NCBI GenBank assembly: GCA_946555455.1
Contig: CAMNSU010000001.1
Location: forward strand, 16,526 to 80,525
Direction: 5' to 3'
Length of the DNA stretch: 64,000 nt
DNA from: an uncultured Clostridia bacterium
Lineage (GTDB): Bacteria > Bacillota > Clostridia > RUG12999
The position numbers and the translations under genes are program-made. The notes under the pieces are model-generated. The model had not been told where the DNA came from, did not search any database, and worked only from the letters and a program-made list of their open reading frames with translations. Each line of letters opens with the position of its first letter. Position 1 is the first letter of the stretch. Below, one piece after another: positions 7,950 to 61,765 of the stretch.

Positions 7950-8262
7950 TTGGAAATATGAATTAGCGTGCGGTTTGCTTTTCGTCACAGAAAAGCGTTC
8001 AGGGAATACGGTGAAAATCCGTAACAGTCACTGCTACTGTAAGGAAGGACAACCTTTGCAAAAATCCACTGGCAGCTATACCATGCCGGGAAGGGGCAAA
8101 GGAAGGATGAATTCCGAGTCAGGATATCTGGACCGTTCGTTTGGCACAAATACCTTCTGTGTAAAGGGCATCGTGCGAATGGGCAGGGACGATAAAGCGT
8201 CCGGTCTATCACTCCAGATACGCACTATGCCGGTTCTTCAGACAGAACCGGCTTTTTGTATT
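7950..8262 (+). promoter_or_regulatory. Cobalamin (AdoCbl) riboswitch with terminator-type expression platform
   Basis: Hallmarks AGGGAAtacGGTGaAAATCCg (8001-8021), ACTGTAAGG, B12-box tCCACTGGcag (about 8066), GCCGGGAAGG (about 8085). Intrinsic terminator GCCGGTTCT-tcagac-AGAACCGGC plus T-run at 8229-8260. RBS AAGGAGGA at 8283. Confidence 0.8.
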
Positions 8263-11338: not shown

Positions 11339-11473
11339 ATTTATCTCCGCCGCTCATCAATTTGTCCTCTCATATAGGTGGAAATTTCGTCTCTTAGCAA
11401 TATTCTCTTTTTGACTAGTATACTGTAATAAATGTACTTTTTGGCGCAAAAGTACCAAACATGTAGAATCCTG

Positions 11474-11632
11474 AACTTTTCATTCATGAAATCTTCGGAC
11501 ATACCCTCTGGGGCACGCGCGTGCCGAAGATTTCATACCCTACAGCGTTCGGAGTGCCGCGTCACGCGGCGCGACACGCGAGTGAAGAACGGTGGCAGGG
11601 GGAATTCCCAAGGGGGGGATGAATCGACGGCG
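11474..11632 (+). repeat. R1 structured repeat, copy a (two more copies in tandem at 61364-61747)
   Basis: Shares CTTTTCAtTCATGAAATCTTCGG...CCGAAGATTTCATAC hairpin, GGAGTGCCG..GGCGCGACaCGCGAG core and G-rich 3' end with copies at 61.4-61.7 kb. Confidence 0.7.
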
Positions 11633-11696
11633 TAAGCCGGAGAGAATCCTTTCTTGGAAATCATTATACCATATCTATTCTTTTTATTGCAACAAA

Positions 11697-27804: not shown

Positions 27805-28127
27805 AACACTTGTCGCCTCCTATATATTGATTACTGCGTCTCTTGTGCGACTCTTTCCGTACACGGTTCCGGGTGTGTCATGAACACCCAAAATAAATAC
27901 CCGGAAGTACGCCTAGCATACAGTCCCGGGTACACATGACGATTCTTTCACAGGCGCGCAGGCAGACCACAGGCGTCCGCCGCTGCTTGTCAAACATTTA
28001 TCGTTCTCTTGTGTACAGTGACTATGCCGCCCGGTTTCTTGAATCGGACATTCTCCATGGAAATTTCCCATTCTCAGATGGAATGCAACCTCCCACTTCA
28101 TCGACTGCCTCGTCACAGCAAGTATTA

Positions 28128-32633: not shown

Positions 32634-34883
32634 TTAAAATTGTTCTCTATATTTTCCCGGCGTTGTTCCATAGCGTTTTTTAAAGGCACGGATAAAAGTT
32701 CCTGCGTCAATAAAGCCGCAGCGGTGCGCAATTTCCTCCAGTTTCAAATCCGAACGCAGCAGGGATTCCGCATTTTTCAGCCGGACATTTAAAATATAAT
32801 CCCGCAAAATTTCACCGGTCTGTTGTTTAAATGTTTTGGATAAATAACTGGAAGATAGCTTGAACACCCCCCCTAGTTCATTCACATTCAAATTCACATC
32901 TGCATAATTTTCCTGGACATATTCCATGACTTTATCACCAAGTGTCGTTTCTTTTGCCGGACGCTCTTTTTGGGGAATCCGACAAAGTTTTTCTGTCAGT
33001 GCTTGCGCCCTGCTATATAGTTCGTCCATGGTTAAGCAGGTTTCCAGCGCTCCGATTTCCTGTTCTTCTGCGCCGTCCTCTTCCATCGTACCGCTTCGCA
33101 GCAGTTTCAGGAAGGCACTCATCATATCATATTTCATGAATTTCAGTTCCTGCGCACTGCTCGGTCTGTCGCCATGTTGATGGAAAATTTGCCGGAGCAA
33201 CCCTTCCGCTTCTCCCTCCGCGCCACGGCGGATACTATCCAACAATTGTTGTTCCAGTTCTACCGTAAACTCATACCGGTTTTCGTTCCAATCCACATCC
33301 TGATATGCCAAAATATCCTGATCCATGGCATGGCGCCATGCAAACAAATCCATGGTCTGTGCATATGCCCGCTGCAATTGCTGCAAATCCGAAAACGATT
33401 CGCTCAGCAGCACAGAATAGTAAATACCGACACGCACTTTTGTAAATTCCTGCGCTTCACCAATACGGCTGCGTAAATCTTCACTGTTTTCCTGCTGCAT
33501 ACCAATCAGGCAAAGCAGCATGTTTTCATCAATCCGCACCGACAGCGTATGATATTCGTCGCCCAGCATTTCATCAAATACATTGGTAATTGCCAGTTCC
33601 ATCAATTCCTGTTCATTTTCATTTTCAAAATCTATCGTTCCGAAATAGTCGCTGAAATCATTGATGGACAGCAGTGCCGCGACATAAACAGGATATTCAA
33701 ATATCACATTATATTGACTAAACACGTCCTGCACTGACCCGCTGTCTTCCCGCAGGAACTTGATATAGGCATTGCGGAAAGAAATATTTTGATATTTCTT
33801 TTTCAGCAGTTCACTTTCTTTTGCACTTTTTAAAATGCCGCGCAGTGTTGTCTGGATATAGTCAAATTCATCCGTACGCGGCGCACCGGAAAGGGAATTG
33901 CCGGAAATCAGCTTCAAAATATTTTCTACCGGCGTATATTGCCGTCTGGCAAAAATATTCGCAAGCAAAATCCCCAGCACCGTAAACAGTGCGGCAAGTA
34001 ACGTCATTATCATAAGGAAAAAGTTCAATCCGCTCCAGTAGAGACCGGCGGACAGCGCATAAATACTTGTTAGATTGGCTTCATTCTCCGACACAAACGC
34101 CACAATTTTCTTGCCGCCCTGATTCAGCGTGTAGTTTCCTTCTCCCTTTTGAACCAGTTCCTCCACCGAATCTTCCAGCAGCAAAGAGGACTGTGATTGA
34201 TAGATAACAGCGTCGTCTACGCCCAGCAGCAGGAGTTCCCGTTCTTCATTCCAATTGATATCCGGAAACATGCGTTCAAATTGCCCTGCACTCATTTGGC
34301 ATACCAACACACCGGTTTTTTCTGCCGCCTCCATGGGAATGGACTGCAAATACATCACATCGCCGTTTTGATTTTTACACAACCGCTGGACATGCGGCTG
34401 CCGCATAAATGCTTTCCAAGATGCATAGTCCGCGTTTTCCGGCAAAATTTCTTCCGGTAAAAACTCCCGGTAAGCCGTTTGCATACGGTTTGCGCCATCA
34501 TAGTCTACCATCATTTCCTGTGCAATATCATAAATCGAAATGTGATCCATATTCTGGTTGTTGGCGGATATCGTACTGATTGCCTTACGCAAATTCTGCT
34601 GGTTCAACGCCTGATTTGCACCATCATTTTGGAGTGCCGCAATAATCTCTTTATCTAAGGATACGCGAATACCAAGTTTATCCAAATCATTTTTCAGCGT
34701 ATGACAAGTGGTATTCATGGTAGAGAAGGCTTCCCTGTTTGCTTTGGTAATTTCCTCCTGCACAATGCTCTTCGCCACCATTGTCATCACAAATGCAAAC
34801 AACATAAATAACAATACAAATGTCACATAGGAAATCAGCCAAGTATGGTACGGTTTCTTTTTGCCCTGCCAAAACAATCGCAT
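32634..34883 (-). CDS. Membrane-anchored AraC-family transcriptional regulator with large N-terminal sensor region (regulator of the adjacent sugar ABC system)
   Basis: N-terminal TM helix, large extracytoplasmic-like domain, second TM and C-terminal AraC HTH (...GTFIRAFKKRYGTTPGKYR). Start ATG 34883 with GGAGGA RBS. Confidence 0.8.
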   Translation of the reverse strand: MRLFWQGKKKPYHTWLISYVTFVLLFMLFAFVMTMVAKSIVQEEITKANREAFSTMNTTCHTLKNDLDKLGIRVSLDKEIIAALQNDGANQALNQQNLRKAISTISANNQNMDHISIYDIAQEMMVDYDGANRMQTAYREFLPEEILPENADYASWKAFMRQPHVQRLCKNQNGDVMYLQSIPMEAAEKTGVLVCQMSAGQFERMFPDINWNEERELLLLGVDDAVIYQSQSSLLLEDSVEELVQKGEGNYTLNQGGKKIVAFVSENEANLTSIYALSAGLYWSGLNFFLMIMTLLAALFTVLGILLANIFARRQYTPVENILKLISGNSLSGAPRTDEFDYIQTTLRGILKSAKESELLKKKYQNISFRNAYIKFLREDSGSVQDVFSQYNVIFEYPVYVAALLSINDFSDYFGTIDFENENEQELMELAITNVFDEMLGDEYHTLSVRIDENMLLCLIGMQQENSEDLRSRIGEAQEFTKVRVGIYYSVLLSESFSDLQQLQRAYAQTMDLFAWRHAMDQDILAYQDVDWNENRYEFTVELEQQLLDSIRRGAEGEAEGLLRQIFHQHGDRPSSAQELKFMKYDMMSAFLKLLRSGTMEEDGAEEQEIGALETCLTMDELYSRAQALTEKLCRIPQKERPAKETTLGDKVMEYVQENYADVNLNVNELGGVFKLSSSYLSKTFKQQTGEILRDYILNVRLKNAESLLRSDLKLEEIAHRCGFIDAGTFIRAFKKRYGTTPGKYREQF

Positions 34884-35028
34884 TCCGTTTCCTCCTATTC
34901 TAAATCCGGCATTCATCTTTGGTTAGTTCTTTTCTTTGATAACAAGGAATGTAAAAGCCATTTTACAAAATGAACTGGCTTTTGTCTGCTGCGCTGTATG
35001 CACCTGCCAAAATCGTCCCGCTTTCTCT

Positions 35029-35170
35029 CATGTGACTATTATATCATGTCCGCAGGGCGGACTGATATAATTTCGTGCATCTCCGCCGGTTGCCGCGTTT
35101 TTATGCGCGGCGAGGCGGAGGCACTTTTCAAATTCATATAATAGTCACTCATGTGACTATTATATCGCCT
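35029..35170 (+). repeat. R2 composite palindromic element, copy a (second copy at 57401-57532)
   Basis: 34-bp palindrome ATTATATCAtgtccgcagggcggacTGATATAAT (35038-35071). Nested GC hairpin CTCCGCCggttgCCGCG-tttttatg-CGCGGcgaGGCGGAG (35081-35120). Then CACTTTTCA and palindrome ATAATAGTCACtcaTGTGACTATTAT (35138-35163). Confidence 0.7.
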
Positions 35171-35255
35171 GATTCGCCATATGTCAATAGTTTCCATCTT
35201 ATTCCACCATACGCTTTTGAAATAGCGTCGCTGCTATTGTAGGCAAATATGCTAT

Positions 35256-35305
35256 AAAAAGAAAACGGCTGCCGTAGGGCGAGTACGGCAGCCGTTTTCT
35301 TTAGG
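35256..35305. terminator. Bidirectional intrinsic terminator (AAAACGGCTGCCGTA...TACGGCAGCCGTTTT)
   Basis: 15-bp stem flanked by A- and T-runs. Confidence 0.7.
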
Positions 35306-35506
35306 GGTGTTATAAAAGATGATTTTATACACTTCGTTAGACGGCAAAATGACAAAAAAGTTCCGGTTTCAGGGAGAAAAATTTTATTTTTCTCTGCCGC
35401 TTCCCACAGTCACCAACCCCTCCCTCCATTCATACACTATATTGAATCCTAAATTAGTTTTTTCCGGATTGTATACGAAACGTTTAAAATGGGAGGATGG
35501 AAAATC

Positions 35507-36373
35507 ATGAAAAAAATAGCAGTAGTCGGCGGAGATTTACGACTTGCAAAAGTTGCAGAATATCTGGCAGAAGATGGATATGTAGTCAAGATATATGGTT
35601 CAAACGCGCCTTTTTCCGGTGGTGTAAAAGTACATATCACACAGACACTGCGGGACTGTCTCCACGATGCACATGTAATTGTTCTGGGGCTTCCGGCTAC
35701 CTGTGACGATGAAACGGTCAGCACACCGAATTTTGACCAGCCAATTTATATCCGTGACATTCTCCGGTATATGCCCAAAGACGCGCTCTTGCTGGCAGGA
35801 CGCATCAGTGAAAAATTGCACGGCGAAATGATTATGCACGGCATACGCTGTGTGGACTATTTCCAGCGCGAAGAATTGACCGTCCGCAACAGCATTCCAA
35901 CCGCGGAAGGCGCCCTGCAAATTGCCATGGAGGAGCTGCCTATCACGCTGCACGGCAGCCGCAGTTTGGTTTTGGGGTTTGGACGGATTGGAAAAGTGCT
36001 TGCAAAAATGCTGCACGGAATCGGAAGTGACGTCACGTGCAGCGCACGCAAGCACTATGACAAAGCGTGGATACATTGCATGGGATATCATGCAATTGAT
36101 ACCGCGGACATTCTTCCGGTGATAGACCAGTTTGACGTGATTTTCAACACCATTCCAGTCAAGATACTTTCAAGCGAAGTCCTCAGCCGTGTCCGCCGCG
36201 ACAGCCTGGTGGTTGACCTTGCCTCAAAACCGGGCGGGGTGGACTTTGACGCGGCAAAAGAGCGAGGGCTGAATGTTATTTGGGCGCTTTCCCTGCCGGG
36301 AAAGGTTGCGCCTGCAACAGCGGGAGAAATTATTAAAGAAACCATTGTAAACATTATGAATGAAATCCTATAA
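35507..36373 (+). CDS. dpaA: Dipicolinate synthase subunit A (SpoVFA)
   Basis: MKKIAVVGGDLRLAKVAEYL Rossmann N-terminus and DpaA family features. RBS GGGAGGATGG. Candidate sigma-K -10 CATACACTA about 60 nt upstream. Confidence 0.85.
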   Translation: MKKIAVVGGDLRLAKVAEYLAEDGYVVKIYGSNAPFSGGVKVHITQTLRDCLHDAHVIVLGLPATCDDETVSTPNFDQPIYIRDILRYMPKDALLLAGRISEKLHGEMIMHGIRCVDYFQREELTVRNSIPTAEGALQIAMEELPITLHGSRSLVLGFGRIGKVLAKMLHGIGSDVTCSARKHYDKAWIHCMGYHAIDTADILPVIDQFDVIFNTIPVKILSSEVLSRVRRDSLVVDLASKPGGVDFDAAKERGLNVIWALSLPGKVAPATAGEIIKETIVNIMNEIL

Positions 36374-45627: not shown

Positions 45628-45704
45628 TGGTGGATCCTCGGGGACTCGAACCCTGGACCGTCCGGTTATGAGCCGGATGCTCTAACCAACTGAGCTAAGG
45701 ATCC
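45628..45704 (-). tRNA. tRNA-Met (CAT anticodon; Ile2/lysidine type not excluded)
   Basis: Minus-strand read GGATCCTTAGCTCAGTTGGTTAGAGCATCCGGCTCATAACCGGACGGTCCAGGGTTCGAGTCCCCGAGGATCCACCA folds as a cloverleaf with a 7-bp acceptor stem, CAT anticodon and encoded CCA. A terminator-like hairpin GCGACAAAC...GTTTGTCGC lies downstream at 45590-45627. Confidence 0.85.
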
Positions 45705-57150: not shown

Positions 57151-57400
57151 ATTTCATGTATCATTTGTATCAAAAAAACCCCGCTCTGCCGTTGCACATA
57201 ATCACCCTCAAACCTGTATTAACCAGGTGGGTACCACCTCCGGAGATTCATACGTCCCCTGGCACCGGACATAGCGTCCGGCGGGGGCATGTACTACAAA
57301 CCGGAAAGCCGGTTCCCTTGAGAATTCATTGGTTTAAGTAATTCCTGTGTTCGCACATCGCAGGGATTTTCCCATATCCAAAGCGCTCCGCGCTTCCCTT

Positions 57401-57532
57401 TAATAGTATTATATCATAAACGCGAAGCGTTTTGATATAATTTCGTGCATCTCCGCCGGTTGCCACGTTTTATGCGTGGCGAGGCGGAGGCACTTTTCAT
57501 TCTATAATAGTCACTCTGTGATTATTATATCA
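57401..57532 (+). repeat. R2 composite palindromic element, copy b
   Basis: ATTATATCAtaaacgcgaagcgtttTGATATAAT (57408-57441), where the central hairpin differs from copy a but stays self-complementary. Identical core ttcgtgcatctccgccggttgcc.cgttttatgcg.ggcgaggcggaggcacttttca. Right palindrome ATAATAGTCACtctGTGAtTATTAT. Confidence 0.7.
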
Positions 57533-57580
57533 TATTATGCTACTAAGTGCAATGGATTATGCGAATTTACCATAAATTTT

Positions 57581-57928
57581 TTAATCTTCAAAATCAAAAA
57601 CATCGCTGTTTTTCTCTTTGAAAATTGCATACACTTCTTCTGAAATCATGGGGTCGTTGATTTGCAGCAGCGATTCTTCGCCATCTTCCGTTTCTTCCAG
57701 TTCCATAATCAGCACGCCATTGTCATCCGGCGGCAATAAAATCACATAAGTTGCGTCTCCATATTCAATACTGTCGAGAAATTCAAATTCTACTTCATTG
57801 CCTTCTTCATCTGTCAACACAACGAAATTATCCATTTCCTCCTCGCTGTGGTCATGCCCGCAAGAGCAATCGTGTCCATGTACATGTTCTTCTGCCATTT
57901 GACATACGCCTCCTTCCTTTTTCTCCAT
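57581..57928 (-). CDS. DUF1292-domain acidic protein
   Basis: Highly acidic C-terminal domain of the DUF1292/YrzB-type. The start may be the internal MAEEHVHG (57898), which has a GGAGG RBS. Confidence 0.55.
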   Translation of the reverse strand: MEKKEGGVCQMAEEHVHGHDCSCGHDHSEEEMDNFVVLTDEEGNEVEFEFLDSIEYGDATYVILLPPDDNGVLIMELEETEDGEESLLQINDPMISEEVYAIFKEKNSDVFDFED

Positions 57929-60835: not shown

Positions 60836-60927
60836 ATGTTATCATCCTTTCTAAAACACTAACTAATATTACGGTACTAGTATACCATATCTTTTAGAGT
60901 ATGTCAAGTCTTTTTGGGGGGACAATT

Positions 60928-61362
60928 ATGAAAAACATGTCACAACACTTAATCGAATTGCGCAAAAACTATCAGTTTACGCAAAAACAGGTAGCAGAGA
61001 CTTTAAAAATGAAAGAAAATGCATATCGCCATTACGAGAAAGGACGGAGTATTCCTAATATTGGTTGTCTCATTCAATTAGCTGAATTATACCATACGTC
61101 CATAGAATATATTGTTAGAGGAAATAAGTTGGATAACATATATATTTCTCACAAAATAACGTCGTTTCCGAAACGTTTGAAAGAAATCCGTAAAAGAAAT
61201 CATATGACACAGCTGCAACTAGCCAAATTTTTAGGATTAGAAGAGGTATCATATCAATATTATGAATATGGCACGCATGAACCCAAACTAGAAAATTTGA
61301 TAAAATTAGCAGACCTGTTTCATGTAACGCTGGACGAATTATTGGGACGAAATGAAACATAA
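60928..61362 (+). CDS. XRE-family transcriptional regulator with two helix-turn-helix domains
   Basis: Two Cro/C1-type HTH units (QKQVAETLKMKENAYRHYEKGRSIP; QLQLAKFLGLEEVSYQYYEYGTHEP). Start MKNMSQHL with RBS GGGGGGA. Confidence 0.75.
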   Translation: MKNMSQHLIELRKNYQFTQKQVAETLKMKENAYRHYEKGRSIPNIGCLIQLAELYHTSIEYIVRGNKLDNIYISHKITSFPKRLKEIRKRNHMTQLQLAKFLGLEEVSYQYYEYGTHEPKLENLIKLADLFHVTLDELLGRNET

Positions 61363-61363
61363 A

Positions 61364-61557
61364 GCTGACGGATACGTCACTTTTCAATCATGGAATGTCT
61401 GGACATGCGCCAGACATTCCATACTTTGCGGCGTTTGGAGTGCCGAGGAACGAGGCGCGACGCGAGAGCGAAAAACGCCGTCAGGAGGAGCCCACGAGGG
61501 GGACGCAGTGACAACGACCAACGGGAGATGGAACAAGTCCCTCTCGTGAAGATATGG
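61364..61557 (+). repeat. R1 structured repeat, copy b (tandem unit 1)
   Basis: Begins 2 nt after the XRE stop. Hairpin ATGGAATGTCTGGACATgcgcCAGACATTCCAT. GGAGTGCCG...GGCGCGACGCGAG core. GGGGGAC...GTCCCTC 3' stem. Confidence 0.7.
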
Positions 61558-61747
61558 GCTGACGGATACGTCACTTTTCAATCATGAAATCTTCGGACAT
61601 GTGCCGAAGATTTCATACTTCTCAGTCGCCAGCGTTTCGCTAGGAACGCTGCGCGAGCGAAGGCGACTGCAAAGGGGGATTCCAACAAGGGGGACGGTAT
61701 GACAGCGACAAAGGGAGCTGGAAAGAGTCCCCCTTTTGACCACAATA
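61558..61747 (+). repeat. R1 structured repeat, copy c (tandem unit 2) ending in a terminator-like hairpin immediately upstream of the phosphoesterase RBS
   Basis: Hairpin ATGAAATCTTCGGACATgtGCCGAAGATTTCAT. 3' stem GGGGGAC...GTCCCCC followed by TTTT (61690-61737). Confidence 0.7.
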
Positions 61748-61765
61748 CACGCGGAGGTGGTTTTT

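Follow-up and report, generated by a model that had tools for sequence, protein, structure and literature searches.

R2, a family of small, probably mobile non-coding repeats with putative promoters and terminators that occupies −10 boxes in uncultured gut Clostridia

Two copies of a repeat, here called R2, lie in the window, i.e., the whole 64-kb stretch of DNA that was analyzed: copy a at 35032-35167 and copy b at 57402-57533, each 132-136 nt in length, with a net size of R2 of 113-121 bp. Copy a is flanked by an AraC-type gene on the minus strand (32634-34916) and by dpaA on the plus strand (35507-36373; the true start gives a DpaA of 288 aa, the ORF one of 294 aa), and the gene coordinates confirm the position between these two genes given in an earlier note on this DNA. 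For copy b, that note had named a place upstream of the DUF1292 gene; as this minus-strand gene has its end at 57581, copy b is actually situated past the 3′ end of that gene and immediately upstream of one for 6S RNA.

Each copy consists of three hairpins in series (HP1, HP2, and HP3), of which the outer two, HP1 and HP3, are made of four copies of the half-site ATTATAYCA/TGRTATAAT, with sites 1 and 4 in one orientation and sites 2 and 3 in the opposite one (Table 1). From left to right, R2 is composed of site 1, (GTGACT)ATTATATCA; a 6-bp inner hairpin; site 2, TGATATAAT; TTCGTGC; a nested GC hairpin of ~20 bp leading into GCAC-TTTTCA; site 3, ATATAATAGTCAC; a loop of 3-4 nt; and site 4, GTGACTATTATATCA. 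A two-copy element with a ATTATATCA-hairpin-TGATATAAT core had already been described in the earlier note, and this core was found again as HP1 of both copies, together with central hairpins (GTCCGCaggGCGGAC vs. AAACGCgaaGCGTTT) that do differ and are both self-complementary. What had been taken for an identical 60-nt nested GC hairpin ending in CACTTTTCA is present with its tail in both copies, but a compensatory pair and an indel set the two apart; likewise, the second palindrome is perfect in copy a (ATATAATAGTCAC-tcat-GTGACTATTATAT), but has a 3-nt loop and one G-T mismatch in copy b. Instead of separate dyads there are four copies of one half-site, and it had been overlooked that the opening 15-19 nt of copy a are a direct repeat of its closing 15-19 nt. 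The two copies are identical in 112 of 137 aligned columns and are covered by the repeat families D5 and D11, with a recurrence far beyond chance. All five exact TGATATAAT matches of the window fall within R2, the half-site has no occurrence outside the two copies, and six TGGTATAAT boxes of the window are unoccupied by R2.

Table 1. Features of the two R2 copies and of their surroundings, with positions in the window
Feature	Position	Strand or direction	Description
Copy a, left direct repeat	35027-35045	+	CTCATGTGACTATTATATC; holds site 1; exact 19-nt repeat with 35148-35166, period 121
Copy a, site 1	35038-35046	-	Leftward extended −10 box TGATATAAT; proximal to the AraC-type gene (start codon 34916)
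Copy a, HP1	35038-35071	+	9-bp outer arms ATTATATCA/TGATATAAT, 1-nt bulge, inner stem GTCCGC-agg-GCGGAC
Copy a, site 2	35063-35071	+	Rightward extended −10 box TGATATAAT; 3 nt ahead of the foot of HP2
Copy a, HP2	35075-35124	+	Nested GC-rich stem of ~20 bp, then TTTTCAAAT tail to 35133
Copy a, HP3	35136-35165	+	Site 3 ATATAATAGTCAC, loop tcat, site 4 GTGACTATTATAT
Copy a, predicted distal leftward sigma-A promoter	35159-35187	-	−35 TTGACA at 35187-35182, 17-nt spacer, −10 TATAAT at 35164-35159 within site 4
Copy b, site 1	57408-57416	-	Leftward TGATATAAT; ~40 nt upstream of the 6S RNA 5′ end, at the position of the single −10 box of empty-site strains
Copy b, HP1	57408-57441	+	Inner stem AAACGC-gaa-GCGTTT
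Copy b, site 2	57433-57441	+	Rightward TGATATAAT
Copy b, HP2	57445-57493	+	Followed by TTTTCA tail to 57499
Copy b, HP3	57502-57532	+	Site 3 TATAATAGTCAC, loop tct, site 4 GTGATTATTATATCA
Copy b, site 4	57532-57524	leftward	Reads TGATATAAT; still attached to the sequence upstream of the −10 box in empty-site strains
6S RNA gene (context of copy b)	57174-57369	-	Rfam RF00013, 79.5 bits

Several other features were noted around the two copies and at related loci (L numbers). Between copy a and dpaA, at 35258-35302, there is a bidirectional terminator-like hairpin with 19-bp arms (AAAGAAAACGGCTGCCGTA-gggcgag-TACGGCAGCCGTTTTCTTT) that is conserved in L015 and L041, where the loop is identical, the stem changes are compensatory, and the trailing GGGGTGTTATAAAAGATGATTT is invariant; no gene ends at this hairpin, which may serve to end a short transcript or to shield dpaA from the promoter that points the other way. 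For the 6S RNA gene, the predicted start lies ~35-40 nt ahead of the 5′ end given by Rfam, and this stretch has a small hairpin (AAGCGC-gga-GCGCTT) conserved in strains that have no R2 at this site, which suggests that 6S RNA is made as a processed precursor. A second repeat, R1, is a GC-rich unit of ~195 nt at 11436-11662, 61364-61557, and 61558-61754 of the window as well as at 9817-10030 of L002. Read as a minus-strand RNA, its four copies share 45 pairs, 19 of them compensatory, with no match in Rfam, and R1 has the look of a gene for a structured RNA not yet described, which has a leftward promoter of its own (TTGCAA-18-TGGTATAAT, 11663-11671). The R1 tandem pair follows a double-HTH XRE gene (60901-61362), and the R1 of L002 has R2 copies on both sides. 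In L017 (3955-5657), from another strain of the species, three tandem paralogous double-HTH XRE genes of 144 aa each are found where the window has one, a strain-variable, cassette-like organization in which R1 units possibly lie between the genes. In the conspecific L016 (1-7100), small HTH, sigma-70-like, and large unannotated genes lie beside a PfkB gene, an arrangement that is not that of the window and is probably a prophage or an integrated element. The Rfam matches in the window further include three ordinary features, a cobalamin riboswitch (7956-8149, 101 bits), a tRNA (45631-45704), and an S10-Clostridia ribosomal leader (28024-28109, 36 bits, barely over the threshold), which supports the Clostridia origin.

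The plus strand of R2 folds into three hairpins (−70 kcal/mol, z-score −11 vs. shuffles). Over five full copies, 98.7% of the stem positions are paired and compensatory changes occur in 12 of 48 pairs (5/15 in HP1, 3 in HP2, and 4/13 in HP3), while none of 500 shuffles was as good. Copies a and b differ in HP2 by a single compensatory pair (GCCGCG/CGCGGC vs. GCCACG/CGTGGC) and a 1-nt loop indel; across all copies, HP2 occurs in two unrelated apical versions. The inner 6-bp stem of HP1 is GTCCGC, AAACGC, or ATCTGC, three sequences that are unrelated to each other and each perfectly self-complementary, and the arms of HP3 are of the types GTGACT, GCGTAT, ATGACT, or ACGTCT (inner arms AGTCAC, ATACGC, AGTCA, or AGACG). 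These modules, i.e., three HP1 cores, two HP2 types, and four HP3 arm types, are combined differently among copies, making R2 a mosaic. In L002 and L006, every half-site reads ATTATACCA/TGGTATAAT in place of ATTATATCA/TGATATAAT, and at the variable position (T or C) site 2 agrees with the version in the flank in all six copies compared. Since the stem sequence varies and the pairing is kept, the ends of R2 are probably recognized as folded single-stranded DNA or by structure; the conservation of pairing fits both folded single-strand recognition and a correction of arm against arm in palindromic DNA. Palindromes of the −10 type are confined to R2 copies and were absent from all other promoters in ~110 kb examined. 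A coding function was rejected, given that the only ORF, which runs on the minus strand across HP2, loses its frame at the loop indel that sets copy a apart from copy b. Judged by eye, R2 fits none of sigma-54 (GG-N10-GC), CodY, CRP/FNR (TGTGA-N6-TCACA), Fur/PerR 7-1-7 boxes, the Spo0A box, and dif.

A covariance model of R2, built from five copies, recovered only copies a and b in the 64 kb (152 and 142 bits). The wider search for copies that had been suggested in the earlier note yielded seven further full, partial, or truncated ones in relatives (L001, three in L002, L006, L041, and L026/L027), so that R2 is not restricted to two copies and amounts to at least nine, which occupy different loci and come from no fewer than four genomes or metagenome bins. 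When one genome per species was scanned for the pattern, the outcome was a single true locus (L001, from a Clostridia metagenome-assembled genome), and a scan of metagenomes gave L002 and L006 as true loci together with seven chance matches (L003-L005 and L007-L010); within L002, the covariance model added two copies, one of them without HP1. The genome and metagenome scans needed near-exact matches (exact anchors) and missed diverged copies, which is why only nine copies are known. In L026 and L027, which belong to the species of the window, as well as in L041, with a DpaA 70% identical, the contigs start inside HP2 of the copy upstream of dpaA. Three independent short-read contigs that start in this hairpin indicate that R2 breaks assemblies and is under-represented in metagenome-assembled genomes. 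No match to R2 was found in phage and plasmid collections by blastn, nor in viral contigs by pattern scans for the core, the HP3 palindrome, and HP2; Rfam holds no R2 family at the gathering threshold over the window, nor at E ≤ 10 over 34900-35500 save for a meaningless miRNA match.

The comparison at the dpaA locus bears on the age of R2. The HP2 of L041 is identical to that of the window at 41 of 47 bases, with a DpaA of the low identity given above, and in L015 (DpaA 85% identical to that of L041) a reduced palindrome, TATAAcAAACGC-tt-GCGTTTaTTATA, is found at this locus. As R2 is shared there with the diverged L041, some copies are old, among them the one at the dpaA locus, and some may be kept for a host function, or homogenized by gene conversion, rather than recently transposed.

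A script and a promoter scan showed that, with one exception, all copies have TGRTATAAT at site 1 and site 4, both facing leftward, and at site 2, facing rightward. The exception, site 4 of copy a (CGATATAAT), has no TG, yet a perfect TTGACA stands 17 nt upstream of it (12/12 consensus match), and the same −35/−10 arrangement of this distal promoter is conserved in the syntenic L015. Judged by sequence, the three sites fit sigma-A extended −10 promoters. Excising R2 with one repeat restores a plausible leftward promoter, namely TTGACA-17-TATAAT for copy a, TTGCAA-17 in L006, and TTGAAA-16 and TAGGCA-17 for the full copy and for L002_2166 of L002, respectively. According to gene orientation, the left neighbor is transcribed leftward in six of seven copies, these neighbors being the AraC-type gene, 6S RNA, a Cu_amine_oxidN1 gene, pyruvate formate-lyase, a signal-peptide gene, and R1. 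The divergent extended −10 boxes proposed in the earlier note thus hold as a fit to sigma-A, but the left box is the host's own, duplicated or replaced, and not newly delivered, while the right box, which faces a terminator-like hairpin, is perhaps no more than the inverted copy that HP1 requires in order to form.

This hairpin, HP2, combines a GC stem of ~20 bp with a TTTTCAAAT tail of only four T and stays below the threshold of a standard terminator scan. Its T tract varies among copies, from TTTTTATT in L002_2166 to none in L041, and is degenerate in L041 and L015. A native terminator between convergent genes in L035 has the same GGCGGCATTTTCAAAT design as the HP2 tail. Together with its TTTT tail, HP2 resembles a one-way terminator of low strength, which would act rightward only, facing site 2. 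Because the ordinary L035 terminator ends in GGCGGCATTTTCAAAT, the CACTTTTCA common to R2 and R1 is probably just a terminator tail.

Empty sites were found in close relatives. The DUF1292 protein beside copy b occurs as a 100% identical protein on at least 21 contigs, and all ten conspecific loci examined (L016-L025) have no R2 at the site of copy b. In these, the 6S RNA is followed by ...TACATATAGTATATCA|TATTATGCTACT... with one leftward box, TGATATACT, and the flanks are otherwise nearly identical to the window. The outgroup lineages (DUF1292 93% and 89% identical) also lack R2 and have a single box, TGATATAAT in L040 and TGTTATACT in L035-L039, so the empty state is ancestral and copy b an insertion; the 6S RNA gene was also present at the empty-site loci L016, L035, L040, and L042. 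At the filled locus, ATTATATCA stands on either side and site 1 is at the old distance from 6S. Aligned against the empty allele, copy b is an insertion of ~116 nt into the predicted −10 box of the 6S promoter. The 25 nt left of copy b diverge from the empty allele more than the remaining flank does, and for this reason the event may not have been a clean cut-and-paste. Copy b provides the one empty site within a species. In L001, an R2 of 136 nt flanked by TATATCAT separates a Fur-family gene from rubrerythrin, two genes that are ≤ 11 nt apart or overlapping, with no R2, in relatives; this comparison is between species, as rubrerythrin homologues were recovered only from relatives ≤ 92% identical. 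In L002, an R1 RNA gene has an R2 in its −10 box, and the same box is unoccupied in the window (11663-11671).

The direct repeats flanking R2 are 19, 12, 8, 11, 15, and 18 nt long, a range of 8-19 nt that does not fit a target-site duplication with a set length. In copy a and L002_2166, sites 1 and 3 are perfect inverted repeats of 13 nt, in the other copies inverted repeats of only ~7-9 nt (ATTATA/TATAAT), and the outermost ends of R2 (sites 1 and 4) are direct, not inverted, repeats. Among the called genes within ~10-20 kb per locus, there was no transposase or recombinase linked to R2 and no autonomous parent.

R2, found in uncultured gut Clostridia, is probably a new family of a generally known kind, the small non-coding mobile repeats carrying promoters and terminators. 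As a whole explanation, we think it probable, with room for doubt, that R2 is a small non-autonomous mobile element that sits in −10 boxes, duplicates the box, and preserves the promoter of the host. R2 would always lie in the same orientation in ATTATAYCA, the reverse complement of the sigma-A extended −10 box TGRTATAAT, or in a look-alike, and its insertion would leave a box on both flanks (sites 1 and 4, within the direct repeats), while the ends of the element (sites 2 and 3) would be inverted copies of the target box. With sites 2 and 3 inverted to the box, each junction forms a perfect hairpin or palindrome (HP1 and HP3), and the duplicated host box together with the inverted copies of the element would explain the back-to-back −10 boxes. 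At site 1, a TG-extended −10 box would remain as far from the gene as it was before, and 6S RNA or the AraC-type gene would thereby stay expressed; site 4 would stay joined to the original −35 region and now read through R2; and site 2 would be neutralized by HP2 and its U tract, which starts 3 nt downstream. Within an operon, HP2 could uncouple the downstream gene. R2 may thus tolerate or prefer −10 boxes because it rebuilds them, and its ends are probably recognized, folded as discussed above, by a putative enzyme acting in trans. A further step, which we regard as rather unlikely, would make R2 a promoter-homing element that chooses its target by nucleic-acid complementarity of its inner arms (sites 2 and 3) to ATTATAYCA. 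The element, or an enzyme on folded strands, would then pair with the −10 region, perhaps melted in the open complex, and integration would regenerate the box on both sides; if true, transposition would be aimed at active promoters without inactivating them.

The earlier note had read the 34-bp dyad as the operator of a dimeric regulator and the whole as a mobile promoter/operator cassette. Its mobile part is supported, R2 being multi-copy and inserted (ten conspecific assemblies and two outgroups are empty), but the operator part is not supported, since the inner stems of HP1 differ completely between copies. An account in which the dyads bind a dimeric factor or another symmetric DNA-binding protein, the neighbors form one regulon, and mobility is secondary would be in line with HP3, the 13-bp arms and variable 3-4 nt spacer of which overlap the −10/+1 of the distal leftward promoter, the classical position of a repressor, with a palindrome having been retained at one and the same position of the promoter in the window, L041, and L015, three diverged relatives, and with the four half-sites of a copy changing in concert. 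One protein, however, cannot read all three of the unrelated HP1 inner stems, and the arms differ even inside one genome (L002 has GCGTAT twice and ATGACT once); moreover, the 6S promoter of conspecific strains operates without R2, the neighboring genes are functionally unrelated, and no candidate regulator was found, so we hold this account to be improbable. About equally improbable is that R2 acts at the RNA level, either as a hairpin RNA of ~50 nt (from site 2 through HP2) or as a structured 5′ leader of the leftward genes transcribed from site 4, its hairpins being under selection as RNA. An extended −10 box only 3 nt away from a stable, U-tailed hairpin, covariation in three of three stems, and, in copy a and L015, the position of the element or its remnant inside the 5′ UTR that starts at the conserved distal promoter would all suit an RNA, but the predicted start at site 2 strips the outer 4 bp of HP2 and leaves the terminator stem alone, HP2 exists in two unrelated apical versions, and HP3 cannot form in the site 4 transcript because its right arm is the −10 box itself. 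The G-U wobbles that arose by substitution favor the plus strand by 3 to 1, a count that is not significant, and there is neither a match in Rfam nor an ORF other than the one broken by the loop indel.

Less credible still is a substrate of site-specific recombination, be it an invertible promoter/terminator switch between sites 1 and 3 or the att scar of a small integrative element. The 13-nt perfect inverted repeats of copy a and L002_2166 do enclose ~90 bp with a one-way promoter and a terminator, HP3 resembles the core site of a recombinase (13-bp arms, short spacer), and direct repeats of variable length are typical of att-type integration. Against this, one internal orientation was seen in 9/9 copies and in both independent assemblies of copy a (L026 and L027), with the limit that assemblies are a consensus in which minor flipped forms are invisible; most copies have a site 1 truncated to 8-11 nt, the spacer varies in sequence, and no recombinase gene adjoins any copy.

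Small mobile repeats that bring promoters or terminators are already known. Correia elements (CREE), MITEAba12, and QMITE1 are non-coding, multi-copy elements of ~100-200 bp with sigma-70-type end boxes able to drive their neighbors (PMC10969869). R2 resembles Correia and other promoter MITEs in being small, multi-copy, highly base-paired, located just upstream of genes, and present or absent depending on the strain (PMC10969869). However, Correia elements have terminal inverted repeats of 26 bp and a fixed TA duplication, whereas R2 has no consistent long ones and direct repeats of 8-19 nt, and Correia makes a promoter at a random TA, whereas R2, with three separate hairpins, sits inside a pre-existing −10 box. 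Measured against the definition of MITEs, R2 is smaller than 300 bp, non-coding, multi-copy, and has an empty site, but lacks the fixed duplication and shows clear terminal inverted repeats in two copies only.

REP, BIME, and REPIN sequences are likewise short intergenic palindromic units with a mosaic structure, pairing that is conserved while the sequence varies, and probably recognition as a folded strand. In REPIN populations, positions may be old while the sequences are homogeneous within a genome (PMC8049555). REPs are known mostly from Proteobacteria, where they tend to follow genes, and their 5′ tetranucleotide (GTAG-like) is conserved, in contrast to R2, which lies in promoter regions and has −10 boxes as arms. 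A RAYT (Y1 HUH) gene was absent from the called genes around any R2 copy (~10-20 kb per locus).

In IS200/IS605-derived elements and integron attC sites, the hairpin ends are conserved by structure, integration is orientation-specific at a short specific sequence, and complementarity of element and target is involved; in these systems, as in REP/RAYT, folded single-stranded DNA is what is recognized. IS200/IS605 elements insert without target duplication and both of their end hairpins share one sequence and polarity, while attC requires the integron integrase and an attI site. None of these hallmarks (no duplication, matching end hairpins; integrase, attI) was found for R2.

The pneumococcal BOX, RUP, and SPRITE repeats have in common with R2 a small size, an interspersed distribution in Firmicutes, and a suspected mobility, with few insertions of recent date (PMC3049150). 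BOX is modular (A-B-C) and SPRITE is a terminator-like stem with a U-rich tract (PMC3049150). The three are over-represented between convergent genes, whereas R2 is found at the 5′ ends of genes or between divergent ones; an empty site exists for R2 but could not be found for SPRITE, and there is no sequence similarity between them.

An insertion inside a −10 box that rebuilds the box on both sides was not described in PMC10969869, PMC3049150, or the literature searched. If general, this behavior would show how a selfish element can settle in the part of intergenic DNA under the strongest constraint and yet spare the gene, and promoters of stable RNAs and regulators (6S RNA, AraC-type, pyruvate formate-lyase) would gain leaders, terminators, and second starts. 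R2 could also mislead predictions of promoters or sRNAs in metagenome-assembled genomes of gut Clostridia. Finally, R2 is like the "putative mobile promoters" of Nijveen, Matus-Garcia, and van Passel, near-identical stretches of ~100 nt or more upstream of non-homologous genes (PMC3575422); those are defined by similarity only, whereas R2 adds an anatomy, an empty site, and the −10 box as the point of insertion.
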